A DNA stretch of 64,000 nt, from positions 336,902 to 400,901 of IMG/VR virus record IMGVR_UViG_3300045988_181003. The stretch is one strand, 5' to 3'. The translations under genes and the position numbers were made by a program. The notes beneath the pieces are model-generated. The model was given only the letters and a program-made list of their open reading frames with translations, made no database searches and was not told the DNA's origin. Positions 26,225-62,436 of this stretch are shown one piece after another. Each line of letters begins with the position of its first letter. Positions within the stretch are counted from its first letter, which is position 1. Source of the stretch: a virus.

Positions 26225-27719
26225 TATCTTTATAATATCCCAAAGAGTTATTAGTTAATGTTGGGAAATATTTAGATAGTTCACTCTCTTGTACTTCTTC
26301 TAAGTATTCAACAGAGTCTTTAAAAATTATACCACCATCATCCTCAAGAACTAAGTGTTCTAGTGGAAAATATGTTTTCTGACGTTCTTCAAAACTGATA
26401 CCCATTTGTTTTGCTTCGAATGCTATCTGTTTATCAAGTTTAGATAGAAATTCGAATATATATTTATATCCACCCTTAACTTTAAATACTTTGTAGGTTG
26501 GATATTCTGGTTTAAATGGATTAGCTACTGGTTTAGAAACTTTTATTCCTAAAATCATACATACCCAAGGACTAGATTTTTTATCTGGTTCTCTTAATTC
26601 ATAACTAATTAGTATCAATTCTTTTCCAAGAACTGCTTTCACGTCTTTGCATGGAACGTTTACTGTTCCCTCTCTAACTTTTAGAGTCTTTGCAATATTT
26701 CTAAAGTCCAAATCTTTAATATTATTTGTTAATACTTTCCAGAGATTTATAGTATCAGCATGACAAATTAATCCAAAATATGATGCCATAGATTCTCTAG
26801 ATTTTTCTATTCTCTTTTTTGCTCTTTTCTTCAATGTTTTTCTAACTGTGGTATATCCTTTTCCATGATGATTTTTAGTTTGTTCTGATCTATGAAAAAC
26901 ATAACCACCTATGTCTACTGGAACTCGAACTGGACATAATTTAATATTTTTCTTAAGTCTATATTGAAGTTCCCTCTTAAGATATATTTTTACAAACTCC
27001 AGAACTTTTTTGGCTCCTTCTTTTGTCTTACAACCAATAAATACATCATCTGCATATCTATGATAGCTCACTACATCTGGAAATTTTTCTAAGATTAAGT
27101 GATCAAACTCAAGCATAATGATATGATGATTAGTTGGACTGAGTGGTGTTCCAATTGGTAATCCTTTATTACACATTGAGACTTTTCTAAGATGTTTTAA
27201 AAGAAGAGGATCTTTGAATAATCTTTCATGTGCTTTCCACATTACTTCTGGTTTTGTCGATCCATAACAATTTTTTATGTCTAACTTTAAATACCACTGC
27301 ATTTCATGTTTTTCATAAAAATCATGTTTTAATTTATGGACCATTGAATATCTCTTATTACTGGATGTTATTCCTCGCCCAGGTATACAATTATATACAT
27401 TGTCTACAATATACTTCTCAAATCTGGGTCGAATCAAGAGGAGTATAACATGCATCACAATTCTCCATTCTAACGAACAACAAGATATTTGTCTAACTTT
27501 ACCAGTAAATGATACTTTTGTTAATGGCGAATAAACTATTGAATGTTTAAGGTAGAATTCTGATTTTATTCTATCATAGATAATATCTACATTATGTTGT
27601 AGGTTTTTCTTAAAATTAATTACATCTCTATGATGAATTTTAGATTTTAAAGCATTAAGTGTTGCTTGGAGTACTAAATCTTTAGTTATAGTACACCATA
27701 AGTTTCCCTGTCTTTTCAT
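26190..27719 (-). CDS. DGR reverse transcriptase with approx. 180-aa C-terminal extension
   Basis: YADD catalytic motif (SYHRYADDVFIGC), GLPIGTPLSP motif-4 (bRT-like GLPIG), GRG motif, basic thumb; located just 3' of an AAC-rich template repeat that matches VR1. Confidence 0.85.
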   Translation of the reverse strand: MKRQGNLWCTITKDLVLQATLNALKSKIHHRDVINFKKNLQHNVDIIYDRIKSEFYLKHSIVYSPLTKVSFTGKVRQISCCSLEWRIVMHVILLLIRPRFEKYIVDNVYNCIPGRGITSSNKRYSMVHKLKHDFYEKHEMQWYLKLDIKNCYGSTKPEVMWKAHERLFKDPLLLKHLRKVSMCNKGLPIGTPLSPTNHHIIMLEFDHLILEKFPDVVSYHRYADDVFIGCKTKEGAKKVLEFVKIYLKRELQYRLKKNIKLCPVRVPVDIGGYVFHRSEQTKNHHGKGYTTVRKTLKKRAKKRIEKSRESMASYFGLICHADTINLWKVLTNNIKDLDFRNIAKTLKVREGTVNVPCKDVKAVLGKELILISYELREPDKKSSPWVCMILGIKVSKPVANPFKPEYPTYKVFKVKGGYKYIFEFLSKLDKQIAFEAKQMGISFEERQKTYFPLEHLVLEDDGGIIFKDSVEYLEEVQESELSKYFPTLTNNSLGYYKDSDSSINNNENI

Positions 27720-27930
27720 TTGTCCTAATCATTTATTTTTTTTTTCGACCAGGCTGTCTCAGCTTTCGAAATGATTTCTCATCCTACTAACAAAGATCCG
27801 TATCTCGCCTTTTTATATATACGGAGTGTCTTGATATTTTTTGGAACTTCCCCAAGGTTTACCTGGTGTTTCTCTCACCATCCACGGCTCGAAAGTCTGA
27901 ATGGATTTAGAAAATCAACAGGTCATAAAA
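27720..27930 (-). ncRNA. non-coding spacer between TR and RT start (candidate DGR RNA spacer/priming region)
   Basis: 210 nt without ORF between TR 3' end and RT start codon, same strand; by analogy with Bordetella DGR RNA where the spacer primes cDNA synthesis. Confidence 0.3.
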
Positions 27931-28020
27931 GGGAGGCGGCATAGTTGCGGTTCGAATTCGACTGGGAGTTGTTGCCATTCCAGTTACGAGCCGAATCGTT
28001 ACTCCAGTTAGCGTTACCTC
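27931..28020 (-). repeat. DGR template repeat (TR)
   Basis: non-coding (in-frame stop) repeat; sense strand encodes ...GNANWSNDSARNWNGNNSQSNSNRNYAASL with 9 AAC/AAT codons; VR1 differs only at these adenines. Confidence 0.85.
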
Positions 28021-28059
28021 AAAACCAAGTAAACCTATTCTAAATATTTCTATTTAGTT

Positions 28060-37508: not shown

Positions 37509-37997
37509 TTATTTTCCTCCCTTAGCAAGTTTATCTACTACATCATTCCAATGTTTGTATATATTATCCTCACCTGTTTGATGTCCTTTAATCCATTCAA
37601 ATTTTATATTAAGATTTTCTTTTCTAATTATTTCAGAAATTTCATTCTTAATTTTTTGAATATATGGTTTAGTTATTTTCCAATTACCATCTAACCATTC
37701 TTTACATCCTTTATAATCTGAAAATACTATAATTAAATCTTGATCTGTATATGAGCCTTTAAACTCTTTTAGTGCTGTTAGAATAGCATACATTTCAGCA
37801 GTTGGATTACTAATATCGTCACTTCCATAATGAAGTTTCATATATTCTGGAATAATCTCAATAGAAAAGGAGGATAATTGTTTCCCAAAAGGTTTCGCAC
37901 CAATAGGATCAACTAAAATTCCTCCTGCTCCAAGTCTACCAGAACCATTTTTTGATTTCAGATGAGATCCATCTGAAAATATATAATATGTATTCAT
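37509..37997 (-). CDS. rnhA: ribonuclease H (RNase HI-type)
   Basis: FSDGS...GAGG N-terminal Asp motif, AEMYAI catalytic Glu, FSDY Asp, W.KGHQTGEDN...DVVDKLA C-terminal motif. Confidence 0.8.
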   Translation of the reverse strand: MNTYYIFSDGSHLKSKNGSGRLGAGGILVDPIGAKPFGKQLSSFSIEIIPEYMKLHYGSDDISNPTAEMYAILTALKEFKGSYTDQDLIIVFSDYKGCKEWLDGNWKITKPYIQKIKNEISEIIRKENLNIKFEWIKGHQTGEDNIYKHWNDVVDKLAKGGK

Positions 37998-39007
37998 TTT
38001 TTAAAATATTTATTTAATAATTCTTTTATCTTGAATAATTTGATTGAGTAGGGTATTTCTATTAATTTAATATTATTATTTGAACAAAATACTCTAACTT
38101 CATTATCCCTTTCTTGTTGTAATCTAAACTTTTCTTCCCCTCCGAAATATTCTACTGATTGATAATGTTGTTTTCCATTATATTCAATAAAATAAGTTTG
38201 ATCAGAAAATTTTATCATAAAATCTATAAATACAGAATTAGATTCTCTAGATTGAAAAATCTCATTTTTTATTTTATATTGAGATATAAAATCAATATTA
38301 TTATTTTTTAAGTACATTTCAATCTCTTTTTCGCCCTTAGAAAACTTACAACAAGGACAACCTCTAGTATGAGTAATAATATTATTGTATGATGTAAAAT
38401 ATTCTCCGTGCTTTGAGCAATTTCTTTTTAGATAGGTTTTAATTGACCCAATTGGATTATCAATTTCTATAAAATGACCTTTTTCTTTTTTATATAATTT
38501 GTTTTCAACAGAAGAATCTAATTCTGTTGTATTATTTATAATAGATTCCTTTGTAAGGATGGGTTTATTGCATGATGGACATCCTCTTCCTCCTAAAATA
38601 TGATCATAAGATGTAAAATAATCTCCATGTTTAGGACATATTCTTTTTAAAAATATATCATTCGCTGTAATGATATCCTTATCAGAAATTTCTTCAAAAC
38701 CATCTTTTGATTTCTTATAAAATTTATTTTCTATTGTAGAGTCTACTTCTTTCACTCTTTTTAATATTTCTGATCTTGATAATCTTCGCAAATCTGTTGA
38801 ACATTTAGGGCACAAAGATTTTCTATGATAAAATGAATCATATCTAACTTCCCAACATGAGTCATGTATTGGACAATATATTAATAATTTGGTTTTTCCT
38901 CCATCAAATTTAATTATCTTTTTGAAAACATATTCCCTTAAGAAACAATCTTCTTCAATATTTTTAATTATTATATCTTCAGTTAATTTTTTCAACTTTG
39001 AACTCAT
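37994..39007 (-). CDS. putative endonuclease: tandem Cys4 zinc-ribbon modules plus C-terminal Vsr/DUF559-like nuclease-fold domain (homing-endonuclease-like)
   Basis: three repeats of C..C...KHGEYFTSY....GCP.C; C-terminal FIDF...IEYNGKQHY...RD...K...GIKLIEIPY resembles PD-(D/E)xK Vsr-like core. Confidence 0.4.
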   Translation of the reverse strand: MSSKLKKLTEDIIIKNIEEDCFLREYVFKKIIKFDGGKTKLLIYCPIHDSCWEVRYDSFYHRKSLCPKCSTDLRRLSRSEILKRVKEVDSTIENKFYKKSKDGFEEISDKDIITANDIFLKRICPKHGDYFTSYDHILGGRGCPSCNKPILTKESIINNTTELDSSVENKLYKKEKGHFIEIDNPIGSIKTYLKRNCSKHGEYFTSYNNIITHTRGCPCCKFSKGEKEIEMYLKNNNIDFISQYKIKNEIFQSRESNSVFIDFMIKFSDQTYFIEYNGKQHYQSVEYFGGEEKFRLQQERDNEVRVFCSNNNIKLIEIPYSIKLFKIKELLNKYFKK

Positions 39008-41560: not shown

Positions 41561-42140
41561 ATATTCCTATCCTATATTCAGATCCATCAGTTTCGGATCT
41601 TTGGTAATTTACTTTCTTATGAAATATTCTATATTCACCTTCGGGGGTTTCTTGGATCATATGATCTTTCCATCCGACAGGGTTAGAATTTAGTTTATCG
41701 ATAAGTTCTGATAATTTTGATATCTTAGGACAGTAATCATATAATGATGTTACATCTGTTTCTCCTGAAGATGTCATTTTCTCTTTCATTCTTTTCAATA
41801 AATCTTTAGCAGTTTCTTCATCCATACAAAAATCTGGAAAATCTGCCATGTTATATTGTACTATATCTGATTCTTTCTTTGGTACAATATAATTCAAGAA
41901 CTGTCCTGCTATTTTCTGTGACTTTATCTCAGCCAATCTAGCGCTTAATCCTGAAGATTTAGATAATACATCTCGAATATCTTGCAATACTCTTAACGAA
42001 GTTGTAATTCCTAAACTAACAAAAACACCGAGAGGTTTGATAAAAGTTTCACCATCAGAACTATTTATATAAAAAGTTTTAAAAGGAGGCTGGTAGAATA
42101 CCTCCACCAGCTCATGTATTGTTTCTTTATTAATAGCCAT
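41544..42140 (-). CDS. hypothetical protein
   Basis: 198-codon ORF. Confidence 0.4.
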   Translation of the reverse strand: MAINKETIHELVEVFYQPPFKTFYINSSDGETFIKPLGVFVSLGITTSLRVLQDIRDVLSKSSGLSARLAEIKSQKIAGQFLNYIVPKKESDIVQYNMADFPDFCMDEETAKDLLKRMKEKMTSSGETDVTSLYDYCPKISKLSELIDKLNSNPVGWKDHMIQETPEGEYRIFHKKVNYQRSETDGSEYRIGIYVTEL

Positions 42141-43821
42141 TATTTTGAGTAAAATCTTTTACTTTAAAATTTGTAAATTTCTGATTATAATGACAAGATC
42201 CATAATTGAATCCATACATAGTATAACCAGTCATTTTTTCTTCTACTTCATGCCATTCTTCTAGATAATCTTCAAAATCGGAGATTAATATTAGAATAGC
42301 ACTTTCATCATAATTTTCTTTAAAGTATCGTATACCTTGAGCCATTCTAGTACCACCACCCATAGAAATTCTTGGGACTGGTTTTTTAGGATCTATATCT
42401 TTGATATGTTCACCTAATCTAGTTGACCATGAGATTATATTATACTTCAGACCATTCTGAACTTTCTTCATTTTCCTAGAAATCGTATTCAAGATTCTAT
42501 CGACTAGTCTGGTATCCATAGATCCAGAAATATCGATTAAGAATACAATTGTCGGATCAGTTGAAGCTGAAATTTTATGTCGATAAGTTGGTGCGATAAC
42601 TGTTCGATTTATCCCACGATTATAGTTATATACTAAATCTTTTTTGTAAGTTCTTTTAATAACTTTACTTTTAAAATTAAATATAACTTCATCGATTGCC
42701 ATGTCGATTGTATCAGTTTTTTCAACTATTCTACTGGCTCCTGGTCCACCACCTGAACCACAACCAACTCCACCTTGTGAGCGAATTTGACCTAGTTCAC
42801 GTTTCTTATCAGCATCATCTCTAGAGTCAGTACCATGATCTCTTCCTGCACCTCCTCCTTCTGAAGGATCAGTCTGATCTGTTCCGTCTCCTCCACGTTT
42901 TCCTTTATATGGAGAATCTTTGGATTCTTTATCTCCAGACCCAGATCCATTACCAGGTTTCATTCCAAGATCTGACATTAGATCATCTAGTGATTGCATA
43001 CCGTCTCCGTTGCCTGAACCATCACCTAACATATCTGATACGTCTTGACCAGATACCCCAGATGTATCACCATTACCACCTTGCTTAATGTTCACTAACA
43101 TCTTAATAAACTGATCAAGATTTTTAACGATTAACATTAAGTACTCGGGGTAACTTAATTCATCGGGGAAAGGAGTTCCATCCTTAAAATGATATCTGAC
43201 TGGTAAGATTAATTTAATCTTTGCCTCAGCGGACATTTTATCAATCTGATCTTGAATCTGCTTTTTAGCTTCTTCATCTGTAGTATTGTCCTGGATGTAT
43301 TTCAAGTACTCAGTTTGATAGTCTGGTAGTTTACTAGATATATCAGCTTCCATTTCTTCAATGTCTTCTGTACTAAGAACTTTGGAATTAACTTCCATAT
43401 CCATAGCAATATTATGAAGACTATGATTGAGATAAGGATCATCGATAATTCTTTCTAGGAGTTTATCAGCGAAATCTATTCCACATTCTTTATTGATATA
43501 ATCGATCATTTCACCTCGATTATTCTGAACCGTATCAACAATTCTACCGTCTAATTCTTCATGAATACCATCAAGATGACCTAGATAAATATGACCATAC
43601 TCATGCATCATAATTCTAAAGTCAGTTCTTTCGATACCCATCGGTGCACAGACTATTTTGTATATAGTCGTAGTATCACCTTTATACTTGAAACAATAAC
43701 CCAATTCAGGATTATCTGGATTGAATTTCTTCGTCAGATTTACCTGAAGTGAGTTACGGAATCTTGTATAAGAAAAATCTACAAAGTTTTTTATATCTTC
43801 TAGATGTTTCTTAGTTCTCAT
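42130..43821 (-). CDS. vWA-domain protein with N-terminal HExxH metallopeptidase-like module (MoxR partner)
   Basis: MHEYGHIYLGH zinc-binding motif; long G/S/D-rich disordered linker; C-terminal MIDAS motif DISGSMD of von Willebrand A domain; directly downstream of MoxR-like ATPase. Confidence 0.6.
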   Translation of the reverse strand: MRTKKHLEDIKNFVDFSYTRFRNSLQVNLTKKFNPDNPELGYCFKYKGDTTTIYKIVCAPMGIERTDFRIMMHEYGHIYLGHLDGIHEELDGRIVDTVQNNRGEMIDYINKECGIDFADKLLERIIDDPYLNHSLHNIAMDMEVNSKVLSTEDIEEMEADISSKLPDYQTEYLKYIQDNTTDEEAKKQIQDQIDKMSAEAKIKLILPVRYHFKDGTPFPDELSYPEYLMLIVKNLDQFIKMLVNIKQGGNGDTSGVSGQDVSDMLGDGSGNGDGMQSLDDLMSDLGMKPGNGSGSGDKESKDSPYKGKRGGDGTDQTDPSEGGGAGRDHGTDSRDDADKKRELGQIRSQGGVGCGSGGGPGASRIVEKTDTIDMAIDEVIFNFKSKVIKRTYKKDLVYNYNRGINRTVIAPTYRHKISASTDPTIVFLIDISGSMDTRLVDRILNTISRKMKKVQNGLKYNIISWSTRLGEHIKDIDPKKPVPRISMGGGTRMAQGIRYFKENYDESAILILISDFEDYLEEWHEVEEKMTGYTMYGFNYGSCHYNQKFTNFKVKDFTQNNGY

Positions 43822-43823
43822 AA

Positions 43824-45344
43824 TTATTTTACATAATCAGTATGAAGTTCCGGAATAATTGATACAGCAGCTGGTGCTTCAACAGACATCAATCTAATAA
43901 GAGATTTCAATTTAAATGAATCTTTCTTAATATCTTCGATAGTTTTGTTGATGGTTGCTTTGGTTGAATCTTTATAGTTTCTACCAGAATCTTGCACCAG
44001 AGTACCAATATTCTTCAAAAGATCAGCCAATGAGTTCCAACGAGTTACATAACCCGCCAAAGCTTCTGGCGCTACTTTATCAGTCAATTTATCAGATGAA
44101 GTAATTTTGATCTTAGTAGTATCCTTAGAATTATATACAATAATTCCACAAAGTTTTTCGATAATCTCTGAATCAATCGGTCTGTCGATATCTTTCAATT
44201 CAACGTCTGATTTCAATTCAGTTACTTTATTGTTTACTACATTTATTTCTTCTGGAGTCAATGAAGTTTTATCTTTAGCACCTACTATAGTATTAAAGAA
44301 ATTTTCATATTCCGGCAGTTTTGTATTCTTCATCTTATCGATATCAGCCACAACTGAGCACATAGAATCATAATAATCCTTAGTTACGATAGTTGTCACT
44401 ACTTCTCTATTTTTGCCTCGACTCAAACCGATACCACAAAGACCTTCAATCATATTACGATAGTTGTCAGAAACAATTCCGTTCTTACCGAAACATTTCC
44501 AGGCAGCTATTGAAACATCACGAAGATAATTCAAAGTACGCATAGTTACGAAACCTTTCAGAGTTGCATCGTTATCAGTTTCAGTATAGATACCCTGCAT
44601 ATCAGTTACCTTCAAGTCAACTACTCTTTCGCCAGTAGTCATCAGAAGTTTAGTAGTTTCATAAACCCCACGTTCAATATACTCAGAAATTTTATTCTTA
44701 GTATCAGGATCCATTGGTTTTTCTTGTGAATCCATAGCTTTCAATTGCGCTGTCTTAGCGGTCATGAAATCCACCATATTACCAGCTATTGCTCCTTCAT
44801 ATCGACACAAGAATGACTTAACATCCTCTTTTTCTGGTACAATATTAAAGATACAAAAACGATTCATCAAGGGCGGAATAAGTCCAAACGTATTACCCAG
44901 TGACTGTGAATAGTTACCAGCTGATACAATTAGAGTATCCTCCGGAATATTTTCATCTCCTACCTTTCTTTCGAAAATTAGATGAAGTAGAGCACTTTGA
45001 ACATGTTCTGGACAAGTTGTGATTTCATCCAAAAATAATAGCGTTCTTTTACCGTTCGCTGCATTTTCCAATACTTTATTATACCAAGACGGTCTAAGAT
45101 GAATTGTACTCTTAGAACCCGGTGTAGTATCGACGACGTCATATCCCATGACTTCACTCTCAGAGGTACTATTACCACGAAGTACTTCAAGTTCATATCC
45201 GCGAATTTTCGCAAACATATCAACTGAAGTTGACTTACCCATACCCGGAGCGCTCATAAACAAGAACGGTACTCTACTTTCTTCACTTACTTTTAACGCA
45301 TAAAAAATTTGCGCGTTAATGTCATTGTTTTTACTTTTTGCCAT
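43824..45344 (-). CDS. MoxR-family AAA+ ATPase
   Basis: Walker A SAPGMGKST, Walker B/sensor LLFLDEITTCPEHVQSALLHLIFERK typical of MoxR/CbbQ-type AAA+. Confidence 0.6.
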   Translation of the reverse strand: MAKSKNNDINAQIFYALKVSEESRVPFLFMSAPGMGKSTSVDMFAKIRGYELEVLRGNSTSESEVMGYDVVDTTPGSKSTIHLRPSWYNKVLENAANGKRTLLFLDEITTCPEHVQSALLHLIFERKVGDENIPEDTLIVSAGNYSQSLGNTFGLIPPLMNRFCIFNIVPEKEDVKSFLCRYEGAIAGNMVDFMTAKTAQLKAMDSQEKPMDPDTKNKISEYIERGVYETTKLLMTTGERVVDLKVTDMQGIYTETDNDATLKGFVTMRTLNYLRDVSIAAWKCFGKNGIVSDNYRNMIEGLCGIGLSRGKNREVVTTIVTKDYYDSMCSVVADIDKMKNTKLPEYENFFNTIVGAKDKTSLTPEEINVVNNKVTELKSDVELKDIDRPIDSEIIEKLCGIIVYNSKDTTKIKITSSDKLTDKVAPEALAGYVTRWNSLADLLKNIGTLVQDSGRNYKDSTKATINKTIEDIKKDSFKLKSLIRLMSVEAPAAVSIIPELHTDYVK

Positions 45345-53182: not shown

Positions 53183-53210
53183 AGAAGAAAAGAAAGAGCC
53201 CAATGGGCTC
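53183..53210 (-). terminator. rho-independent terminator after flotillin gene
   Basis: hairpin gagcccaATGggctc then T-rich run on minus strand. Confidence 0.55.
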
Positions 53211-53230: not shown

Positions 53231-55348
53231 TTATTTTACAGGTGGGAAATTTCCATCTTGTTTTTTCTCGACAGAAGTTTCATCTGTAATTTCCGTTGGT
53301 TTTGGTTCTTCTTTATTTTCCAATTCACCTTGTTGTTTTTTATCCCAGTTTGAGATTTTACTTAATACTCCACTTACACCCGGGATCATACCAGATAAGG
53401 CTGAGAATTTCTGAACTGCTTCAACAGTACCAAGCATAAACTTACCAGCATCTTCCGGACCACCGACAACAGTAACATTACCTGTGTTGACATGTTCGAA
53501 TTTCTTCGCATCAGCTTCAGCAATGTATTTGTACTCATCTTTCATAGTCCATTGAACGATAGCGGTATCTTCCATGCCGGCTTCTTTCAGTGCTACAATG
53601 TTAGCAGTTTCAGCGGCAATACTTTCTTTCTTCACTTTTGCCATAGCCAATTCACCTTCAGCTTCGGCTAGTTTCAATGCTTTGATTCGACCAGCTTCAG
53701 CCGCTGCTTTAATTTTAATAGCTTCTGCATCAGCCTCTGCCTCAGTAATTACTTTAGATTTGTAACCCTCGGCTTCTTTTTTCTTTCGTTCGGCTTCTTT
53801 TTTCGTCGGAATAATCAATTCTGCCTCAAGTTTAGCTTCCTCTGCTTTAGCTTTGGCTTTAGCGATTTCCTCCTCTTTAGTTTGATCAGCTTTACCGATA
53901 GCCTGGGCGGCAAGTGCTTTTGCTTCACCAACTGTTCTCTCTGCTTCAGCCTGTTCTTTTCCAAGTTGAGCATCGGATTTAGCCACTTCAATACCTGCTG
54001 TATTTTCAGTAAGTGTAGCATCTTTCTCTGCTTCAGCGGCTTTCTTACGAGTTTCTGCTTCGTAGAGAGCAATCTTCGCAGCTTTTTCCTGACGAGCTCT
54101 TTCTTTTTCAGCTTCTGACATTTCATTAGCTGATACTTGCCGAGCTTCTGCTTTCTTTTGAGCTTCAGTAATTGATGCCTCACTTGCAAATTTAGCAGAT
54201 TCCTGAGAAGCCTTTGATTCAGCTTGTTTAGCAGCAACCTCTGCATCACGTTTAGCCTGGTGAGTAGCTACTTCGGTATCTCTTTCTGATTCCTGTCTAG
54301 CTATTTCGGCATCGCGCAGACGATTTTGTTCTGCTACTTTTTGAGCTTGTTCGGATTGATTAACCGAAATATCAACTTGTTTTTGTTTTTCAATTTCAGA
54401 AACCTGAACAGCCTCTTGTTTCTCAAGATCAGCAATTTCAATTTCCTTCTGTTTCTCGATATTTCTGATTGCTACGGTCTCTTCTTTTACTTTTTCTGAG
54501 AGTTGTACTTGCTTTTCTTTTTCGATATCTCGCAATTCAACTTCTTTCTCCTTGATAGTAAGCGATGTGACCGTTGATCTTTCTTTATCAATTTCGGCTG
54601 TCTTAATTTCACGAGTCTTCTCGTTTTCAGATACCTGAATTTGACGTTCTCTCTCAATGTCAGATAATTTAATATCTTTATCCTTCTTTTGAGTAGCAAT
54701 ACCGATAGAACCTTCTTTTTCACGAAGTTCAATACCAGTAAGTGCTTCATACTTAGCTTTTGCTTCAGCTTCCTTACCTAGGTTAATGATATAGTTTGCA
54801 GAGTCTTTGATATCACTGATATTGATATTCAATAGGGTTAAACCAAACTTGCGAAGTTCTGTATCAATATTTTCTTTACAAGAACCTAAGAAATTATCAC
54901 GATCTGAGATTAATTGTTCAACTGTCATATCAGCAACAACCAAACGCATTTGACCCCAGATAACATCTTTAATAAGATCTTCTTTGTCATTTTCAGCTAT
55001 CCCTAATAGACGAATCGCAGCATTTTGCATTACTGCCGGATCTTCTGAAATAGCTACAGTTACTACGGTTGGTACATCAACATTAATTTTCTGACTACTA
55101 AGAGCGCCTTTTAGATCACACTGAATCTGCATCGGCTTCATTGACATAATCTTGTAGCCCTGAATGACTGGCCATACGAAAGCAGCTCCACCGTGATAAC
55201 ACTTAGAACTAGATTTTCCGCCAGTCTTACCATAAACTACCAAGACTTCATCAGATCCACACTTTTTGTAACGGCTAAGAATTCCCCAAAGGGTCAAAGC
55301 TACTAGTAGAACAAGTCCACCCGCGAAATAGACAATTGTCATGTCCAT
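53231..55348 (-). CDS. yqiK: flotillin-like SPFH/band-7 protein (YqiK-like) with long E/A/K-rich coiled coil
   Basis: N-terminal TM then SPFH core closely matching bacterial flotillin YqiK (DEVLVVYGKTGG...HGGAAFVWPVIQ...MQNAAIRLLG...IWGQMRLVVADM...DRDNFL...GLTLLNINI.DI). Confidence 0.8.
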   Translation of the reverse strand: MDMTIVYFAGGLVLLVALTLWGILSRYKKCGSDEVLVVYGKTGGKSSSKCYHGGAAFVWPVIQGYKIMSMKPMQIQCDLKGALSSQKINVDVPTVVTVAISEDPAVMQNAAIRLLGIAENDKEDLIKDVIWGQMRLVVADMTVEQLISDRDNFLGSCKENIDTELRKFGLTLLNINISDIKDSANYIINLGKEAEAKAKYEALTGIELREKEGSIGIATQKKDKDIKLSDIERERQIQVSENEKTREIKTAEIDKERSTVTSLTIKEKEVELRDIEKEKQVQLSEKVKEETVAIRNIEKQKEIEIADLEKQEAVQVSEIEKQKQVDISVNQSEQAQKVAEQNRLRDAEIARQESERDTEVATHQAKRDAEVAAKQAESKASQESAKFASEASITEAQKKAEARQVSANEMSEAEKERARQEKAAKIALYEAETRKKAAEAEKDATLTENTAGIEVAKSDAQLGKEQAEAERTVGEAKALAAQAIGKADQTKEEEIAKAKAKAEEAKLEAELIIPTKKEAERKKKEAEGYKSKVITEAEADAEAIKIKAAAEAGRIKALKLAEAEGELAMAKVKKESIAAETANIVALKEAGMEDTAIVQWTMKDEYKYIAEADAKKFEHVNTGNVTVVGGPEDAGKFMLGTVEAVQKFSALSGMIPGVSGVLSKISNWDKKQQGELENKEEPKPTEITDETSVEKKQDGNFPPVK

Positions 55349-55375
55349 ACTTTTAAGTTTTTAATTGTTAGTAAT

Positions 55376-55930
55376 TTAATTAATATAATATTTCCCATCT
55401 ATATAGGAAGTTATTTTTATTTTATATCCAGTTGGATATAATTTTCCAGGAGTAGAACTAGATACTTGTAATTGCCTACTTGCTCCATTAATAACGATTA
55501 CTATTATGTACTCATCGTTTTTCAGTTTCAAATAGATCTCACCATAACGACCTACCAATTCTTCTCCTTTTTCAGGGATTATTTCTTTTCTTAATTTATA
55601 GGCTCCCCAATAAGTTAAATATAATACTACCATAATAAGTGCTCCAATTAAGAAAGCAGCTGCATGAGTATTCCAAGTTGGATTTGCTGCGTGTAGATAC
55701 ATCCACCAAGAATATCCAATTCCAAAATGAATTATACCCTTGAATGAAATAATAGATCCTAGATCAAAATCAGTGTCTGTATCTACATCGGTATCTATAT
55801 CTGAGTCAATCTCTAGATCACCCCAAATAGTAGATAAAAGGAATTGCACTAAGAACCAACCAGTACAAAATATGGCAAGTCCAAGATAAACCATCTGTGG
55901 ACCACCATGTTCGTTAATAAAATCCATCAT
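55376..55930 (-). CDS. NfeD/YqiJ-like membrane protein (flotillin partner)
   Basis: N-terminal TM helices plus C-terminal beta-rich OB-like segment; directly upstream of flotillin as in yqiJK operons. Confidence 0.45.
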   Translation of the reverse strand: MMDFINEHGGPQMVYLGLAIFCTGWFLVQFLLSTIWGDLEIDSDIDTDVDTDTDFDLGSIISFKGIIHFGIGYSWWMYLHAANPTWNTHAAAFLIGALIMVVLYLTYWGAYKLRKEIIPEKGEELVGRYGEIYLKLKNDEYIIVIVINGASRQLQVSSSTPGKLYPTGYKIKITSYIDGKYYIN

Positions 55931-55979: not shown

Positions 55980-56008
55980 AGGAGAAAATAAAAGGGACAC
56001 GAAGTCCC
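55980..56008 (-). terminator. rho-independent terminator after ligase-like gene
   Basis: hairpin gggacACGAAgtccc then TTTTATTTTCTCC on minus strand. Confidence 0.5.
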
Positions 56009-56013
56009 AAATT

Positions 56014-56703
56014 TTATTTGTTTTCTATAGATCTTTTATACATAACAAAATCACAAGTTTTAATTTTCGTAATTATTCTTTTTCCATTTCTAAATTTTAG
56101 TCCATGAAGTGGTTTTAAGACCAAACCCTCAGCTAGGAAATCCTTTTTCTCTGATATAGTCGAGTAAAATCCCTTCTGTACAAGATCAATGGCTTCTTGA
56201 ATAGTCATATATCCTACTAATGGAACTATCTTTATTCCTAATTTCTTAGCGATATCTTCAAGTGAATCTCGTCTCAACCACCAGTCTCCTATCTTAACAT
56301 CAAATAGTATAAAATCAACATCTTTTGATAGATAATTTCCTCCTTTCCGTATTCCTCTTCCATATCCTTCGCCGTAAATCGATATTGGTGGGATTTCTAA
56401 TGTGTTCTCAATAGAATCTTTAAAACATTCCAAAATTCTATCTAGTGGTAATCTTTCTTTTAATTTTTTAACCAGATCTGAGGGAATATTGGCTGCTTCT
56501 GTTTTCCCGAAGTATGATAATTTAGGAGTAGAGTCACAATATTCTAAGTCAATATGTATATTTTGTCCATCAATTTTCTCAGTACATTCCCACTCTAGGT
56601 CTTTCAGGTATTCAAATTCCGAGTAGGTAAATTCTGATGGGATTATAATATTTTTCTCATCCCTTTTAAATAATGTATCAATTTTTTGATAATCTCTATT
56701 CAT
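56014..56703 (-). CDS. ATP-dependent RNA ligase-like nucleotidyltransferase (Rnl-type)
   Basis: covalent nucleotidyltransferase motif I KIDGQN, motif IV EGLVLKP, motif V lysines (KRIITKIK); size (229 aa) fits stand-alone RNA ligase NTase domain rather than DNA ligase. Confidence 0.5.
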   Translation of the reverse strand: MNRDYQKIDTLFKRDEKNIIIPSEFTYSEFEYLKDLEWECTEKIDGQNIHIDLEYCDSTPKLSYFGKTEAANIPSDLVKKLKERLPLDRILECFKDSIENTLEIPPISIYGEGYGRGIRKGGNYLSKDVDFILFDVKIGDWWLRRDSLEDIAKKLGIKIVPLVGYMTIQEAIDLVQKGFYSTISEKKDFLAEGLVLKPLHGLKFRNGKRIITKIKTCDFVMYKRSIENK

Positions 56704-57451
56704 TTTCTTTTTCTTTAGTAAGTTTATCTAATTTCTTTTCTAATTCTTCTAGTTTATCCAAAACTCTTTTATCATTGTCATTGCAAAATTCATCTGTGAA
56801 AGCTGATGTGATAAATGATATCCCTAAGATTGAACAAATGAAGACTATCCCTGATACTAAGATTACTCCAAAAGCTCCCATAAAACTATTGTTCTTCTCA
56901 TAGATATTATCAGATATTTCATACCAACCTTCAATAGTGAATAATCTAAATGTCGTATAGAATCCTCTCCACGGACTTTCAAAATATTCTGGATTAGATT
57001 TACCATATAATTGACATAATGATATATTTATAATAAAAAGAACCAATATCATTCCAAGGATTACTGGGACCGAAGTTTTAAATGCTAATTTTAAATTAAC
57101 TAAGATTTTTCTAAATTGTGGAAAAACTTTAATTAACCTGAAACATTTAAGAGTTCTAAATAACCTTAGCAACATTAGAGAACTTATATTATATTCTGGT
57201 AGAAACATCCCAATAAGACAAATATATACTATAGTAGCATCAAGTAAACTAATAATACTGCTAAGATATCCTTTCCTGGAATATATTTTATAAGTAATTT
57301 CCATCGAAAAATAAATAGTAATGAGATGATCACAATACACTAGGGTAGGATACATCTCATTATGAAAACACATGGCGAATAATACTAAAGAGTTAATGCA
57401 AATTAGTATATTCACCATGGTTGAGTTAAAAATATTACTTACATACTTCAT
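56696..57451 (-). CDS. voltage-gated cation channel subunit (BacNaV/CavMr-like 6-TM, TxEGW filter)
   Basis: six hydrophobic segments; S4 with basic residue every third position (LLRLFRTLKCFRLIKVF); pore motif FRLFTIEGWYE; C-terminal coiled coil (DKRVLDKLEELEKKLDKLTKE) as in bacterial NaV neck. Confidence 0.6.
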   Translation of the reverse strand: MKYVSNIFNSTMVNILICINSLVLFAMCFHNEMYPTLVYCDHLITIYFSMEITYKIYSRKGYLSSIISLLDATIVYICLIGMFLPEYNISSLMLLRLFRTLKCFRLIKVFPQFRKILVNLKLAFKTSVPVILGMILVLFIINISLCQLYGKSNPEYFESPWRGFYTTFRLFTIEGWYEISDNIYEKNNSFMGAFGVILVSGIVFICSILGISFITSAFTDEFCNDNDKRVLDKLEELEKKLDKLTKEKENE

Positions 57452-58313
57452 TCATAATATTTTCAAGTTCTCGAGTATACTCAATAAACTCATTCGATTC
57501 ACGAATTCCTGGAGTTCTTTGCCCAGGGAATTTGATATCGATTATCTTATAGATACTACAAGGATTTGCTTTCAGCACTATAATTCGGTTACTCAGATAA
57601 ACTGCTTCTTCAATAGAATGTGTAACTGAAATAATAGTTGGATCAAATGTACTTTCGTAGTAAATTTTAAGAAGAGTATCCTGTACTTCTCTCTTCATTT
57701 TTATATCGAGCGCACCGGTTGCTTCGTCAAGTAAGAGAATTTGTTTATTCCCTGCCATACTACGAGCTAATGATACTCTTTGAAGTTGTCCTCCTGATAA
57801 CTCTGGTTGTCTAGCCCATTTATAAGAATGCTCTTCTAATCCAACTACTTTTAGAAATCCCATAGCAGTTGATTTAAGCTCATCACCTTTTATTCCTTTC
57901 AGTTTTAGGGGCAACGCTACATTATCTAGAACTGTCATCCATGGAAAACTTGAGTATTGTTGAAAAACCATTGGAATAAAACCATCTAGTGGTTTTCCAT
58001 AAATCAAAACTTCTCCACTTGTCGGCTTATTCAGTCCAGAGATGAGTTTTAGAATTTGACTCTTCCCACAACCAGATTGTCCCATAATTGATATAAATTG
58101 TCCTTCGCCTGGGAAATCGGGTATATCGAAATCAAAGTTTTCAAATAACTTATATTCTTTATCCGTTCCCTCATTAAAGGTAACACTTATATTCTTTAGA
58201 TTAACTACATCTTGTAATTTATCTTCTGATGGAAATGGAGTGATAGTTTTGGTAACTAGTTTAGTTTCTCCAATTTCTTCAGTAAACGTTGATAAATTTA
58301 TATTCTTTTTCAT
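57435..58313 (-). CDS. ABC transporter ATP-binding protein (NitT/TauT family-like)
   Basis: Walker A GQSGCGKSQ, signature LSGGQLQRVSLAR, Walker B ILLLDEATGALD. Confidence 0.85.
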   Translation of the reverse strand: MKKNINLSTFTEEIGETKLVTKTITPFPSEDKLQDVVNLKNISVTFNEGTDKEYKLFENFDFDIPDFPGEGQFISIMGQSGCGKSQILKLISGLNKPTSGEVLIYGKPLDGFIPMVFQQYSSFPWMTVLDNVALPLKLKGIKGDELKSTAMGFLKVVGLEEHSYKWARQPELSGGQLQRVSLARSMAGNKQILLLDEATGALDIKMKREVQDTLLKIYYESTFDPTIISVTHSIEEAVYLSNRIIVLKANPCSIYKIIDIKFPGQRTPGIRESNEFIEYTRELENIMNEVCK

Positions 58314-59119
58314 TTTCGTTTATATGGAAAAAGTACCGGTTCTAATTTTTTGCAGCCATAATCTTGACATATCCCGATTAAGATAATTATAAAGAGAAGA
58401 GCATATATTTCTGGAGTTCTAGATTGTCTACCAAGAGTAGATATCATAGCTCCAATACCTCCTTCTTTATTTAAAGATTCAGCTATAGTTACATAAGTAT
58501 ATGATATTGCTACTAATGAACGAATATCAGAGTATACTTTTCCCATTACATATGGCCAATAGATATATCGGAACTGTTGCCAATTAGTCATACCTATTGT
58601 CTTACCAGTTTGAATATAAATATTATCTTTCTCATTAGTTGGATCTTGTAATTCCAAAACTCTCTGAGTAACTACTGGTAAGATATAGATTAATATACCA
58701 AATGCCAAGAAACTTGCCTTCATATCGAATCCTAATCCTAATGCTGCTATAAAAATGCCAGATGTTGCTGGCAACGGTAAATATCTAATAGCCTCTATAT
58801 ATTTCCTAAATAATGCTCTAGGTAGAGGATATATACCAATTAAAAATCCAGCAGGGATTGCTATTATGATAGCATACACATAACCAGTAAGATTAAGTGA
58901 TATAGTATACCACATCTCCTTAAATAATCCAATCTCAACTAGATCTGGGATTGATTTAAGAACATTTACTGGACTGGGTAAAATCTTTGGGGAGATAATC
59001 CCCCCATTGATTGTTGTGATAAGTTGCCAAAGGATTATCAATACAATAGCACCAATTAATCCAGATGCTATTTCTTTTTTCTTTGAAATTTTACCACCAA
59101 ATTCGATTAAGTCTTTCAT
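58310..59119 (-). CDS. ABC transporter permease (BPD-type inner-membrane component)
   Basis: six predicted TM helices, EAA-like loop region; coupled to ATPase gene. Confidence 0.6.
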   Translation of the reverse strand: MKDLIEFGGKISKKKEIASGLIGAIVLIILWQLITTINGGIISPKILPSPVNVLKSIPDLVEIGLFKEMWYTISLNLTGYVYAIIIAIPAGFLIGIYPLPRALFRKYIEAIRYLPLPATSGIFIAALGLGFDMKASFLAFGILIYILPVVTQRVLELQDPTNEKDNIYIQTGKTIGMTNWQQFRYIYWPYVMGKVYSDIRSLVAISYTYVTIAESLNKEGGIGAMISTLGRQSRTPEIYALLFIIILIGICQDYGCKKLEPVLFPYKRK

Positions 59120-60678
59120 TATTCAGAAATTAATTGAAAGTCTGTAGTTCTATATTCTCTAGAGTCTCCACGGATACCATCTTGAATAGCTTTTTTAGGT
59201 CCGTTACCAACTACAATAAATCGGTTCGGATCCATACCATATACATTCACCAGGTATTCAACAACAGCTGCAGCTCGTTTCTTAGATAAGGATACATTAT
59301 AATCTGCATTACCAGTATTATCGGTGTTTCCTTCAACTCTAACTCGAGCCCCAGAGAATTGTTTAGCAATATCTACAAATTCCCTATCGATTATATTTCT
59401 AGCTTCATTGTCTAGTGCATATCCGTTAACTGGGAATTCGATAACTACTTTTTTATCTGATATAGCTTGTTTGGTTTCTAATTCCTTAGTTGGTGCTTTA
59501 AATTCTTTTGCTTTAGTAGCGCCCTGTTCGTTATCTAATGTATTATTTTCTAATAATTCTTCAATAATACTGGGATAACTAACTTTTGCCCAAGCTAATG
59601 GTGCTTTGCATAAACCAATTCCAGAATAAAGTCTAGACATACGAGTATAGAGTTGATCTGCATTCATTCCCGTATATTCTGGATTAAACCCAAAATAATT
59701 AGCATTATCAGCTAGTGTAGCGTAGTTTACTTTCTTAGAAGATATTAATGCAAAATCTTCTCCCATTCCGAATGCATCAGCAAATGCTTTAGCTCCCTCT
59801 TTGTATGCATAATCTTGATATTTTACTTCAGAATTAGCCCAAAGAATAGCAGTTACTATATTTTTGCTAAATTCTTTATTTTCATCAAGCCATTCTTTTT
59901 TTGCAATTAATCCATCACTGATTAAGTTATTAGCTTGCTTAGTTGAAGTTAATACTTTTGATCCAGGGATAGCTGCTAGACAATCCTCATCGTCCGGTGC
60001 CCATACAACAGCAGCATCAACTTGTTTTGCTTTGAAAGCTGAGGCAGCTTCAGTCCCTGATAAAACTTTAACGAATTTTATATCACTCTGATTCAATCCA
60101 TTTGTTTCTAAGGTATTAAGAAGTAATGTATGTGCAGCAGTGCCTTCAGAGAATGCTATACTTTTTCCCTTTAGATCAGCTACGGTTTTAATTGTATTAT
60201 TAACTACTATAGCATCAGCTCCATTAGAGAAATTCAAAAGCATAAAATATCTTGCATCTGTCATATCTCCGGCAGCAGAAGTTTCAGTTGGGAATGCATC
60301 AAGTGTACAATATGCTATCTGTGCATCACCATTCTTAAATGCAGCCCGACATGCCTCAAAATCATCCATGATGATAATTTTCAATTTCAATCCGAATTTT
60401 TTATCAAAATAAGATCCTTCTTTTCCCTGAAGTCCTCCGTTTCCCCATACAATCGGTTCAAAACCGCAGTATGTATTTACAATCAATGTTGCATCGTAGT
60501 CACCAGATTTAGATGAACTGAATAATCCACTAAATAGATTTTTACTACTTTGTGAGGTTCCATCCTTCTTATCACTCCCCATCATTTTTTGGGATGCAAA
60601 ATAAAGGAACCCTCCGATTACTAATACAACAATACCAATGATTAAATTCCGTCCTAGCGGTGTTAAATGCTTTGCCAT
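59119..60678 (-). CDS. membrane-anchored substrate-binding protein fused to C-terminal OmpA/MotB-like domain
   Basis: N-terminal TM anchor, SsuA/NMT1-like periplasmic binding fold region, C-terminal NTDNTGNADYN.SLS.KRA..V.EYL peptidoglycan-binding OmpA-type motif. Confidence 0.55.
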   Translation of the reverse strand: MAKHLTPLGRNLIIGIVVLVIGGFLYFASQKMMGSDKKDGTSQSSKNLFSGLFSSSKSGDYDATLIVNTYCGFEPIVWGNGGLQGKEGSYFDKKFGLKLKIIIMDDFEACRAAFKNGDAQIAYCTLDAFPTETSAAGDMTDARYFMLLNFSNGADAIVVNNTIKTVADLKGKSIAFSEGTAAHTLLLNTLETNGLNQSDIKFVKVLSGTEAASAFKAKQVDAAVVWAPDDEDCLAAIPGSKVLTSTKQANNLISDGLIAKKEWLDENKEFSKNIVTAILWANSEVKYQDYAYKEGAKAFADAFGMGEDFALISSKKVNYATLADNANYFGFNPEYTGMNADQLYTRMSRLYSGIGLCKAPLAWAKVSYPSIIEELLENNTLDNEQGATKAKEFKAPTKELETKQAISDKKVVIEFPVNGYALDNEARNIIDREFVDIAKQFSGARVRVEGNTDNTGNADYNVSLSKKRAAAVVEYLVNVYGMDPNRFIVVGNGPKKAIQDGIRGDSREYRTTDFQLISE

Positions 60679-60701
60679 TTTTCTTAATTTTTAAAATTTG
60701 A

Positions 60702-61745
60702 TTAAAAGTATTTTCTATTTTTATTTTGTTTCTGAGGAAGATTATCTCTAACTTCTTCATAATCAACATCCTCGATTGATTTTAAACTTGATAGATCTGC
60801 TCCGATATGCTGAGAAGTCAATGAAAATCCAAGACCTTCAAATCCGGTTTTATCAAATTCTGCTAGTATTTTATCTGCTTTTTCTGCAGCTACCATACCA
60901 TCAAGTTCATAATTCAAGAGAATATCATTAGATCCATCCAAGAACCTATTAATCTGTCCGAGTGATTCATTAACTGAATCTGTTATTTGATCAAGTGCTA
61001 GTTGTACTTCAAGACTTTTTGTCAATCCTCTTCCAGACATAATAGCAGCAAAAGATTTCATTGCGCTCTTCTGGGCTTTAGATTGTTCATATTCATCTTT
61101 TCGTACTTTTAATTCATTAGATGCATCCTCTATTTGAAATTTTGCCATTTCTTCCAGTTTCTTCATAACTTTTAGATACTTTTCGGAATTAGCAATTCTA
61201 GTCTCTTGATTTTTAATCTGTTCTTGTAAACGAACTATTTGCCGCTGTGACAGAATTTCCTTATCTCGAATCCCCTTAAGTTTTGCTGCTTGTAATCTAG
61301 CAGTTTCGTTTAAGAAATCTTCTTTAGATTGATCTCTTTTCTTTTTCATTCCTTCAAGAAGACCCTGAAGTTTATCAATATTGGAGCTAATCAATACTAA
61401 TTTTTTCTCCATCTCTTGAACTCCAAGCGCTAAAATATTGACTGGATCAATTTCCACAATTAAACCAGTTATTTTTCTCATAACCTGTAGGTAAAGTAAT
61501 TCAAACTTTTTTTTAAATTCTGGATTCGTGATTAAGGCTAGAATTGCCCAAATCAAGATTAACATTAGAATCAATGTTAATACATTACTAGCTAGGGTGA
61601 TAAGTATTGGCAGCATTTTATATAATACTACCAAAAATCCACCAAGTGCACCCCATGCTACAATTTTACCTAGTGTTCCGCCTGGTCGATTCCAAAGATT
61701 AATTTTCTTTTCTTCCATAATTCTTCTATTGTATTGATTTATCAA
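60702..61745 (-). CDS. PspA/IM30-like coiled-coil protein with N-terminal transmembrane extension
   Basis: hydrophobic N-terminus then helix with QEME motif (ALGVQEMEKKLV) and long heptad-repeat region, as in PspA/Vipp1. Confidence 0.35.
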   Translation of the reverse strand: MINQYNRRIMEEKKINLWNRPGGTLGKIVAWGALGGFLVVLYKMLPILITLASNVLTLILMLILIWAILALITNPEFKKKFELLYLQVMRKITGLIVEIDPVNILALGVQEMEKKLVLISSNIDKLQGLLEGMKKKRDQSKEDFLNETARLQAAKLKGIRDKEILSQRQIVRLQEQIKNQETRIANSEKYLKVMKKLEEMAKFQIEDASNELKVRKDEYEQSKAQKSAMKSFAAIMSGRGLTKSLEVQLALDQITDSVNESLGQINRFLDGSNDILLNYELDGMVAAEKADKILAEFDKTGFEGLGFSLTSQHIGADLSSLKSIEDVDYEEVRDNLPQKQNKNRKYF

Positions 61746-62436
61746 TTTTTTCTTTATCTGTGTTTAATGTCTTAAGAACACTATCCACACTAAGTTGAAA
61801 AGTCTTCTCTTTTGTATCCAGCTCTGATTTTTCTGACATTATCTCAGCTGATAATTTGTTTATTTTAATCGATGATTGTTGAAGTTTCTCTTGTAGTGCT
61901 TCTATCTGTTTTTGATAATTAGAAGCTTCTTCTTTGAGTGATTTAAGTTTATCTTCTTTATCACCGATTTTTTCTTTTCTAGACTCTTTTAATTCTTCAA
62001 GCCCTAGTTTTCTTTCTTCATCTACAATTCCTTTATAGGTTTCGATTGAATCTAGAATAATCTGTTTAGTTAACTGTGGGGCTCCTTGTTTTAGAACGTT
62101 GAAAGCAGCTGGTAATCGTTGAGAATCATCTGGAATAAAACTCTCTAATCCCTTTGCGGTTGTTTTCAATTCTAAATAATCTGGCCCTGGTAGATCTCTA
62201 GCAACAACTGCAGACCATATGGAATTTATAATTTCCTGATTAGGCACTGCAAATATACTAGATTCCTCCTCCTCTTTTTTAGGATTTTCATCTACTCTGG
62301 GTGGATTAGTAGCAATATATTCAAGAGGGTCTTTTGTAACCTCTTCTTTCGATACTTCCTCTTGGTCTTTTTGTTCTGCTTTTTTCTTTTTAGATGACTT
62401 TCCATCATCTGTAAATAAAAGATCTTTAAGTCCCAT
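61726..62436 (-). CDS. coiled-coil protein (possible PspA-module partner)
   Basis: 236 codons, K/E-rich N-terminus, C-terminal heptad repeats. Confidence 0.35.
   Translation of the reverse strand: MGLKDLLFTDDGKSSKKKKAEQKDQEEVSKEEVTKDPLEYIATNPPRVDENPKKEEEESSIFAVPNQEIINSIWSAVVARDLPGPDYLELKTTAKGLESFIPDDSQRLPAAFNVLKQGAPQLTKQIILDSIETYKGIVDEERKLGLEELKESRKEKIGDKEDKLKSLKEEASNYQKQIEALQEKLQQSSIKINKLSAEIMSEKSELDTKEKTFQLSVDSVLKTLNTDKEKIDKSIQ

Follow-up and report, generated by a model that had tools for sequence, protein, structure and literature searches.

In bacterial voltage-gated sodium channels (BacNaVs), four subunits form one pore, and depolarization moves the S4 helix outward and opens the S6 gate. 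To our knowledge, bacterial voltage-gated channels have become structural workhorses, and their physiological roles are largely unknown. CavMr from Meiothermus ruber, a member of the AnclNav group, is a native prokaryotic voltage-gated Ca2+ channel (Shimomura et al., 2020, eLife). Its selectivity filter reads 183-TLEGWVD-189, and the glycine at position 4 of this filter (Gly4) is a key determinant of selectivity for Ca2+; CaV domains I and III are marked by Gly4 combined with a residue at position 7 that is polar or acidic (PMC7041947). In a survey of viral transport genes published in 2018, the terms "voltage," "sodium channel," and "calcium channel" never occur (Greiner et al., 2018, Viruses, PMC6163359). 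Here, we describe a gene for a complete voltage-gated cation channel subunit in a 64,000-nucleotide stretch of viral DNA (IMG/VR record IMGVR_UViG_3300045988_181003, positions 336,902 to 400,901), and "the window" means this whole stretch throughout. The explanation we favor, and consider likely, is that the gene encodes the subunit of a homotetrameric, depolarization-activated channel of the BacNaV superfamily, which belongs to a Bacteroidota clade and is carried as an accessory gene by a large tailed phage that infects gut or rumen Bacteroidales.

The channel open reading frame (ORF) spans positions 56696–57451 on the minus strand, runs from ATG to TAG, and encodes 251 amino acids; all further coordinates within the channel gene and its operon refer to the same strand. 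The frame is uninterrupted over its full length, and the N-terminus of the protein agrees with those of the homologues. The protein matched the Pfam profile Ion_trans (PF00520; E 4.9e-19, 68.9 bits at a cut-off of 25, profile positions 7–235 of 241) and not an unrelated transporter family. The best matches in a sequence search of the PDB were NavAb chimeras, NavMs, NavAb, and repeat II of NaV1.7 (E 5e-18 to 1e-13). An AlphaFold2 monomer model, built from 26 aligned sequences with a mean pLDDT of 78.3, contains helices at residues 10–29, 35–58, 66–81, 89–109, 113–149, 160–169, 173–186, and 189–250. These were assigned to S1–S4, the S4–S5 linker with S5, the pore helices P1 and P2, and an S6 that runs into a long C-terminal helix. 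Comparison of the model with the PDB by Foldseek returned NavAb, NavMs, CavAb, and CatSper with a probability of 1.00 and TM-scores of up to ~0.72. Profile, alignment, model, and Foldseek comparison agree with the BacNaV-type architecture of about 250 amino acids that a preliminary description of the DNA had proposed, and the ORF is confirmed as a full-length, single-domain, voltage-gated cation channel with six transmembrane (TM) segments and the NavAb/CavAb fold. A plain Kyte–Doolittle scan found S1, S3, S5, and S6 strongly hydrophobic and S4 amphipathic and weak, but did not flag S2, as is expected of a charged voltage-sensor helix; the predicted number of six helices was taken from the structural model and the alignment, not from hydropathy.

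The voltage-sensor domain S1–S4 (residues 10–109; 57125–57424) was delimited by alignment with NavAb, NaChBac, and CavMr and by the model helices. Its S4 helix, ISSLMLLRLFRTLKCFRLIKV (57125–57187), is the canonical sensor described previously: the five basic residues R96, R99, K102, R105, and K108 occupy every third position and align with R1–R4 of NavAb and NaChBac. The charge-transfer center in S2 and S3 is complete in the alignment. Specifically, N20 in S1, D41, F48, E51, and K55 in S2, and D71 in S3 align with their counterparts in NavAb and NaChBac, and these residues and the S4 charges are invariant or nearly so across the clade to which the protein belongs. The S4–S5 linker (residues 113–127) and S5 (128–149) were placed at 57005–57115 by alignment and model.

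The pore loop (56894–56974), also placed by alignment, comprises P1 (residues 160–169), the filter T172-I-E-G-W-Y-E178, and P2 (173–186), and contains the sequence F168-RLFTIEGWYE-178 reported in the preliminary description. The filter TIEGWYE (56918–56938) aligns column for column with TLESWSM of NavAb, TLESWAS of NaChBac, and TLEGWVD of CavMr, and so with known P-loops. With Gly175 at position 4 and Glu178 at position 7, it bears out the proposed resemblance to CavMr and to CaV domains I and III. The S6 inner helix (residues 189–219; 56795–56887, by alignment and model) carries Thr215 at the position of an S6 Asn that is conserved in the clade. It is followed by a C-terminal neck (DEFCNDNDKR) and a putative short coiled coil (VLDKLEELEKKLDKLTKE), together 56699–56794. 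In this region (residues 220–251), the model helix is continuous to residue 250, and V230, L234, L237, L241, and L244 show heptad-like spacing. If this is the coiled-coil neck proposed earlier, it has only about two heptads and is shorter than in the aligned classical BacNaVs.

The position of the protein among known channels was determined with a bootstrapped neighbor-joining tree of the source sequences of Figure 1 of Shimomura et al. (2020), to which the window protein and 14 relatives from databases were added. These additions grouped in a clade of their own with 100% bootstrap, apart from the Bacillus, NavAb-like, and AnclNav groups. The main split of the tree (76%) puts this clade on the side of the NavAb-like sequences and not with the AnclNav/CavMr and Bacillus sequences; the clade lacks the long P2–S6 loop that CavMr and NavPp have in the alignment. 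Membership of the CavMr/AnclNav clade was rejected on the basis of the separate 100% clade. Similarly, membership of the canonical NavAb-like group was rejected, as the clade branches off outside this group and the window filter departs from TLESWSM at positions 2, 4, 6, and 7. The label "CavMr-like" given in the preliminary description thus applies to the filter and not to the clade.

The clade is defined by the filter [TS][IV]EGWY[ED], in which the residues corresponding to E174, G175, and W176 are invariant, and by a conserved C-terminal motif, DNNDE...LEKK. A scan of species-representative genomes (one genome per species) returned 525 relatives, and the figures on bacterial taxonomy given here refer to the best 80 of these. 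Almost all of the 80 were from Bacteroidota, mainly Prevotella and other Bacteroidales of the rumen and gut. The bacterial copies that were inspected lie in ordinary chromosomal neighborhoods (ParAB, GlnRS, DapB, TrkH, MatE, Dus) without an ABC transporter module. No characterized member of the clade was found in the literature searched. The window protein is the most divergent member, with 29–39% identity to any other; no relative above 39% identity was found in a collection of 5.8 billion proteins, in IMG/VR, or in the species genomes.

For ion selectivity, the preliminary description had seen a hint of Ca2+ preference, which is a reasonable reading of the Gly4 resemblance to CavMr and no more than a hint. 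By analogy with measured channels, a preference for Ca2+ is plausible, and we hold the question to be evenly balanced. The reason for taking it seriously is that every Gly4 filter measured so far prefers Ca2+ at least 40-fold: PCa/PNa was 218 for wild-type CavMr, 40 for its variant V6T (filter TLEGWTD), 144 for D7M, and 41 for NavPp D4G, whereas the CavMr variants G4S and G4D fell to 11.9 and 7.7 (Table 1 of PMC7041947). Gly4 is thus the main Ca2+ determinant in CavMr and is transferable to NavPp (PMC7041947), and the window filter keeps Glu3 and an acidic position 7 besides Gly4. The strongest alternative is a channel that is Na+-selective or poorly selective among cations, in which a Gly4 filter with Tyr6 on another backbone departs from the behavior of CavMr; its probability is somewhat below even. 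The CavMr rules were established on an AnclNav backbone, and the window protein, with its Tyr6, belongs to a clade on the NavAb-like side of the tree. Furthermore, the high selectivity of CavMr required Val6 in addition to Gly4, since V6T not only lowered PCa/PNa from 218 to 40 but also let K+ and Cs+ through (PMC7041947). The published reference set also holds NavAb-like sequences with TLEGW filters, and currents were measured only for four AnclNav genes (PMC7041947). What stands against this alternative is the at least 40-fold preference of wild-type CavMr, V6T, D7M, and NavPp D4G alike, and the retained Glu3 and acidic position 7.

That the window is phage DNA is very likely, in line with the statement of the preliminary description that the channel is encoded by a phage. 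The assignment rests on shared genes, a diversity-generating retroelement (DGR), and gene content, because no hallmark gene of virion structure or packaging was recognized. The DGR repeats were found by targeted local alignment and had been missed by a generic repeat finder. The reverse transcriptase gene lies at 26190–27719 and the template repeat, upstream of it, at ~27930–28034. The template repeat matches the 3' end of a 943-amino-acid ORF (~14040–14142), and 15 of the 20 differences fall on template adenines, a pattern characteristic of DGRs. A diverged variable repeat (16915–17007) lies at the 3' end of an 870-amino-acid paralogue, with 16 of 31 differences at adenines; the 909-amino-acid tail-fiber paralogue beside the reverse transcriptase gave no variable-repeat match. 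Judging from these repeats, the DGR appears complete and active-looking and would be aimed at a tail-fiber paralogue.

The ORFs of 943, 870, and 909 amino acids are homologous to the annotated DGR-target tail-fiber protein of csAssE-Sib (OR575929), a complete gut phage genome with annotated terminase, portal, and capsid genes. The order of tail fiber, reverse transcriptase, and giant carbohydrate-binding protein is the same in csAssE-Sib and in the window. Additionally, a flotillin (SPFH) gene and an adjacent gene for a 184-amino-acid TM protein (53231–55930) have counterparts in csAssE-Sib (42 and 37% identity) and on two IMG/VR contigs of 171–172 kb (56–57 and 36% identity). The 184-amino-acid protein is possibly NfeD-like. 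Literature searches for phage-encoded flotillin and crAss-like phages with flotillin, and for csAssE-Sib, gave nothing relevant, and the ORFs of csAssE-Sib shared no gene with the channel-bearing IMG/VR loci within 10 kb on either side of the channel. The window DNA from 28 to 48 kb gave no megablast match to GenBank phages. The window has a coding density of 95%, with genes in co-directional blocks, and most of its long ORFs have no Pfam family. RtcB, an Rnl2-like ligase, and homing-endonuclease-like genes are present. Neither a tRNA nor an Rfam match was found in the 64 kb, and no ribosomal gene or other core housekeeping gene came up in the Pfam and PHROG scans of the window. The channel donors, the link to Lak megaphages described below, and the gut and rumen sources suggest a Bacteroidales bacterium as the probable host, and probably one of Prevotella type.

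The competing reading, in which the window is a piece of bacterial chromosome, plasmid, or integrative element and the channel an ordinary cellular gene, is improbable. In its favor, no terminase, portal, or capsid gene was recognized in the 64 kb by PHROGs, Pfam, tblastn, or PDB sequence search, with about 40 ORFs compared with PHROG and Pfam. A 505-amino-acid ORFan gave no hallmark gene in tblastn and IMG/VR scans, and four ORFans had no match below E 0.2 in the PDB by sequence. Hallmark genes may be located beyond the window. The great majority of the channel clade is bacterial, and DGRs, flotillins, and ABC transporters occur in bacteria too. Three short IMG/VR matches of 4–5 kb (L015, L017, L029) carry channels that nest among Prevotella sequences; these may be misclassified bacterial fragments or very recent captures. 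Against a bacterial origin, no other gene of the window was present at any of the best 80 of the 525 bacterial channel loci, and the other identifiable relatives of the window are all phage (csAssE-Sib, a Lak megaphage, and IMG/VR contigs of 100–180 kb). The three tail-fiber paralogues, one of them with an active-looking DGR variable repeat, the lack of Pfam families for most long ORFs, and the lack of tRNA and Rfam matches point the same way. A plasmid origin was rejected because no plasmid with a channel of this clade was found.

In other viruses, the channel gave no match in tblastn against 50,697 GenBank phage records, no family in PHROGs, and no BFVD structure at E ≤0.001; no report of a phage-encoded BacNaV or other voltage-gated channel was found in the literature searched. 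A scan of IMG/VR with the single channel protein likewise returned no relatives, and a profile scan was needed, which found 24 contigs with relatives of 32–38% identity, in two multi-member groups and several singles. The earlier remark that such a channel would be unusual for a virus is thus supported by the empty catalogues and the 2018 survey, but the window channel is not unique, given the 24 IMG/VR contigs with relatives. Among large phage contigs of IMG/VR, about 16 have a related channel. A BacNaV-type channel is kept by large phages and is absent from the curated viral catalogues and the literature searched.

Group A (L016, L018–20, L037; contigs of 16–380 kb) has a T4-type dNMP kinase, a NUDIX hydrolase, Clp-like ATPases, and ORFs of phage-only PHROG families as neighbors of the channel. 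In group B (L021–28, L030, L031, L038; contigs of 35–178 kb), the channel adjoins the same ABC transporter cassette as in the window. Short stretches of group B contigs (for example L022, 15976–17287) are 90–96% identical to the human-gut phages cr108_1 and cr111_1 (NC_055878, NC_055880), a hint that these groups of phages exchanged DNA recently. In contigs L021–L031 and L039, ORFs of at least 100 amino acids (standard code) cover 51–60% of the DNA, compared to 95% in the window; many small genes or recoding could account for this. In a neighbor-joining tree of 108 viral and bacterial channel sequences with 200 bootstrap replicates, the window channel joined groups A and B, each of which had 100% support. 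Within groups A and B, the ratio of nonsynonymous to synonymous substitution rates (dN/dS) was 0.02–0.23, and these related phage copies are under purifying selection.

The channel gene is part of a putative operon of seven abutting or overlapping genes that runs from 62436 down to 56014. The first gene encodes a 236-amino-acid coiled-coil protein (61726–62436) and the second a 347-amino-acid protein (60702–61745), for which hydropathy indicates two TM segments and a coiled coil; neither had a significant Pfam match, and the homologues of both adjoin the ABC cassette in contig L039, group B, and the Prevotella megaphage Lak-C1. The next three genes form an ABC importer. The substrate-binding protein of SsuA/TauA/NMT1 type (59119–60678; Pfam NMT1 and OmpA; phrog_25518, 6e-58; NCBIfam) has an N-terminal TM anchor and a C-terminal OmpA/Pal-like peptidoglycan-binding domain, a seemingly unusual architecture. 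It is followed by the permease (58310–59119; Pfam BPD_transp_1; best matches SaoP and TauC, below their cut-offs) and the ATPase (57435–58313; Pfam ABC_tran, 4.1e-25; phrog_293, 1e-56). The best NCBIfam matches of the transporter were of the NitT/TauT type (SsuA, TauA, urea-like) and all fell below their cut-offs, so that NCBIfam named no substrate. The channel gene comes next; 17 nt at its 5' end are shared with the 3' end of the ATPase gene, and 8 nt at its 3' end with the start of the last gene, which encodes an Rnl2-like RNA ligase (56014–56703; Pfam RNA_ligase, 2.3e-17; phrog_548). From these overlaps, the channel gene appears to be translationally coupled to both neighbors. A terminator-like hairpin with a T-run (55994–56008, found by consensus scan only) follows the ligase gene and is the likely end of the operon. 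The overlapping start and stop codons and this hairpin indicate co-transcription.

The five genes upstream of the channel (57435–62436) form a module that is shared with other phages. Given in the order of the 236- and 347-amino-acid proteins, OmpA-domain binding protein, permease, and ATPase, the module is collinear in Lak-C1 (L122, 17544–23711) with 34, 29, 53, 48, and 48% identity and in IMG/VR contig L039 (8427–13194) with 43, 40, 67, 58, and 51% identity. It was also found at eleven IMG/VR loci, and the OmpA-domain binding proteins of Lak megaphages are 52–54% identical to that of the window. The channel takes two positions beside the module, after the ATPase gene in the window and between the genes for the 347-amino-acid protein and the binding protein in group B. 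These two positions and the absence of a channel from the modules of L039 and Lak-C1 mark the channel as an accessory gene. The association suggests a functional link between channel and ABC module, or at least a preferred insertion site.

The composition of the gene bears on how long it has been in the phage. The GC content at third codon positions is 0.23 in the channel gene and 0.15–0.26 in its neighbors, and the overall GC content of 27% contrasts with a mean of 41% for the bacterial homologue genes. Such complete amelioration to the phage implies that the gene has resided there for a long time and was not lost. Taken together, the viral tree, dN/dS, and composition indicate one old capture, or a few, from Bacteroidota, after which large phages probably retained the gene in functional form for a long time.

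Several observations weigh against this explanation. The viral grouping has a bootstrap value of only 63% in a simple neighbor-joining tree, and the long branch of the window channel goes to the outgroup in 54 of the 200 replicates. As no relative above 39% identity was found in the collections searched, the dN/dS values cover groups A and B and not the window's own lineage. The presence of the ABC module without a channel in L039 and Lak-C1 shows that the channel is dispensable for the module. Furthermore, of the 45 clade-conserved columns, 12 are changed in the window protein; the S6 Asn (here Thr215) is among them, and IS (residues 67–68) stands in place of the WN in the S3 motif GWNxFD. 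The long branch, the lost residues, the lack of a close relative, and the absence of the channel from the same module elsewhere would fit a neutral or decaying passenger that was picked up from the host and has no function in the phage. We consider such a passenger unlikely. The 33 columns that are kept include all gating charges and the E-G-W of the filter, the frame is full-length with an N-terminus that matches the homologues, the related phage copies are under purifying selection, and the ameliorated GC values and the apparent coupling to both neighboring genes also speak against it.

It is most improbable that the protein is another kind of Ion_trans member and not of NaV/CaV type: the Pfam family does span K+, TRP/PKD, cyclic-nucleotide-gated, and voltage-sensor-only proteins, and precomputed annotations show faint PKD_channel matches for many clade members, but a K+ filter of TVGYG type is absent, the P-loop aligns exactly with the BacNaV filter T-x-E-x-W, no cyclic-nucleotide-binding or extra domain is present at a length typical of BacNaVs, and the best sequence and fold matches are NavAb, NavMs, CavAb, NaV1.7, and CatSper, on which grounds K+ and TRP-type channels were rejected.

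For the functional phage channel that we prefer, the following mechanism can be proposed. The channel would be an accessory ("moron") gene, co-transcribed with the phage-conserved ABC importer module, and during infection its product would be inserted into the cytoplasmic membrane of the host. As the resting potential of bacteria is strongly negative, the channel should be shut in a healthy cell and would open on partial depolarization, admitting Ca2+ and/or Na+ down steep gradients. In this way the phage could gain control of the electrical and ionic state of its host. A partial depolarization, caused by a superinfecting phage, a defense system, or the onset of holin action, might be converted into a fast, all-or-none ionic signal. 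Candidate roles are the timing of lysis, the sensing of superinfection, and the countering of membrane-targeting defenses, and the channel may cooperate with the importer transcribed with it and with the flotillin-type membrane scaffold encoded nearby. A biological role in the control or amplification of depolarization events during infection is speculative. In a more specific form, large phages of gut and rumen Bacteroidales would keep their own Ca2+-preferring channel lineage, tied to the ABC module, to sense and amplify changes of the host potential; depolarization by superinfection, abortive infection, or the first holin lesions would then cause a rapid influx of Ca2+ or Na+ that sets the time of lysis or blocks competitors. 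We offer this version tentatively and find it rather doubtful. If it were true, it would be the first voltage-gated channel with a voltage-sensor domain for which action in a prokaryotic virus is demonstrated, and phages would be seen to exploit bacterial electrical signaling. A phage channel in a defined operon also offers a concrete setting in which to ask what depolarization-gated cation entry does in bacteria.

Some other genes of the window were noted. Two are of RNA-repair type, RtcB (11164–12480; Pfam 6.7e-52) and the Rnl2-like ligase at the end of the channel operon, and the pair might counter tRNA-cleaving defenses of the host. A radical-SAM enzyme (492–1508), a ClpB/FtsH-like AAA+ protein with a weak M41 peptidase match (5673–7850), an HNH-type homing endonuclease (37994–39007), and a MoxR-like ATPase paired with a VWA-domain protein (42130–45344) were also found. 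A further terminator-like hairpin (53196–53210, by consensus scan) follows the flotillin gene.

Compared to the Lak megaphages (MK250029 and relatives), the window has the five genes that flank its channel in the same order, at 29–53% identity; Lak-C1 has no channel within 20 kb of this module, and no Lak record matched the channel. Closest to the window protein in kind are the channels of its Bacteroidota clade (for example P0005, P0021, and the "ion transporter" of Saccharicrinis sp.), which share its length, filter, and C-terminal motif. NavAb, NavMs, and NaChBac are the best sequence and fold matches and have the same charge-transfer residues, and the S4–S5 linker differs little (PQFRKI in the window protein, PQMRKI in these channels). 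In contrast, the window filter has Gly4 and Glu7 where canonical BacNaVs have Ser4 and Met7 or Ser7, the acidic residue of the canonical S1 motif "ETS/ETY" is not conserved, and the S6 Asn, shifted in the clade relative to canonical BacNaVs, is Thr in the window protein. CavMr is likewise a single subunit with six TM segments, four S4 charges, and a C-terminal helical tail, and its filter has Thr1, Glu3, Gly4, Trp5, and an acidic position 7 in common with that of the window. It differs in having Leu2, Val6, and Asp7 instead of Ile2, Tyr6, and Glu7, and only the window protein is phage-borne. The [TS][IV]EGWY[ED] clade is a large group in dominant gut and rumen bacteria that carries the Gly4 signature on a non-AnclNav backbone; it could be used to test how general the selectivity rule of CavMr is and could yield compact Ca2+ channel tools.

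Among virus-encoded channels, the chlorovirus Kcv and phage K+ channels (PMC6163359) are the nearest counterparts, as there, too, a virus carries a gene for a tetrameric cation channel of cellular type, which presumably acts on the membrane potential of the host, as is presumed for the window channel. Those channels are minimal pores with two TM segments and without a voltage sensor, whereas the window channel has six TM segments, a full sensor, and a filter of NaV/CaV type. With it, the catalogue of virus-encoded channels extends from minimal K+ pores and viroporins to a complete channel of voltage sensor plus pore.

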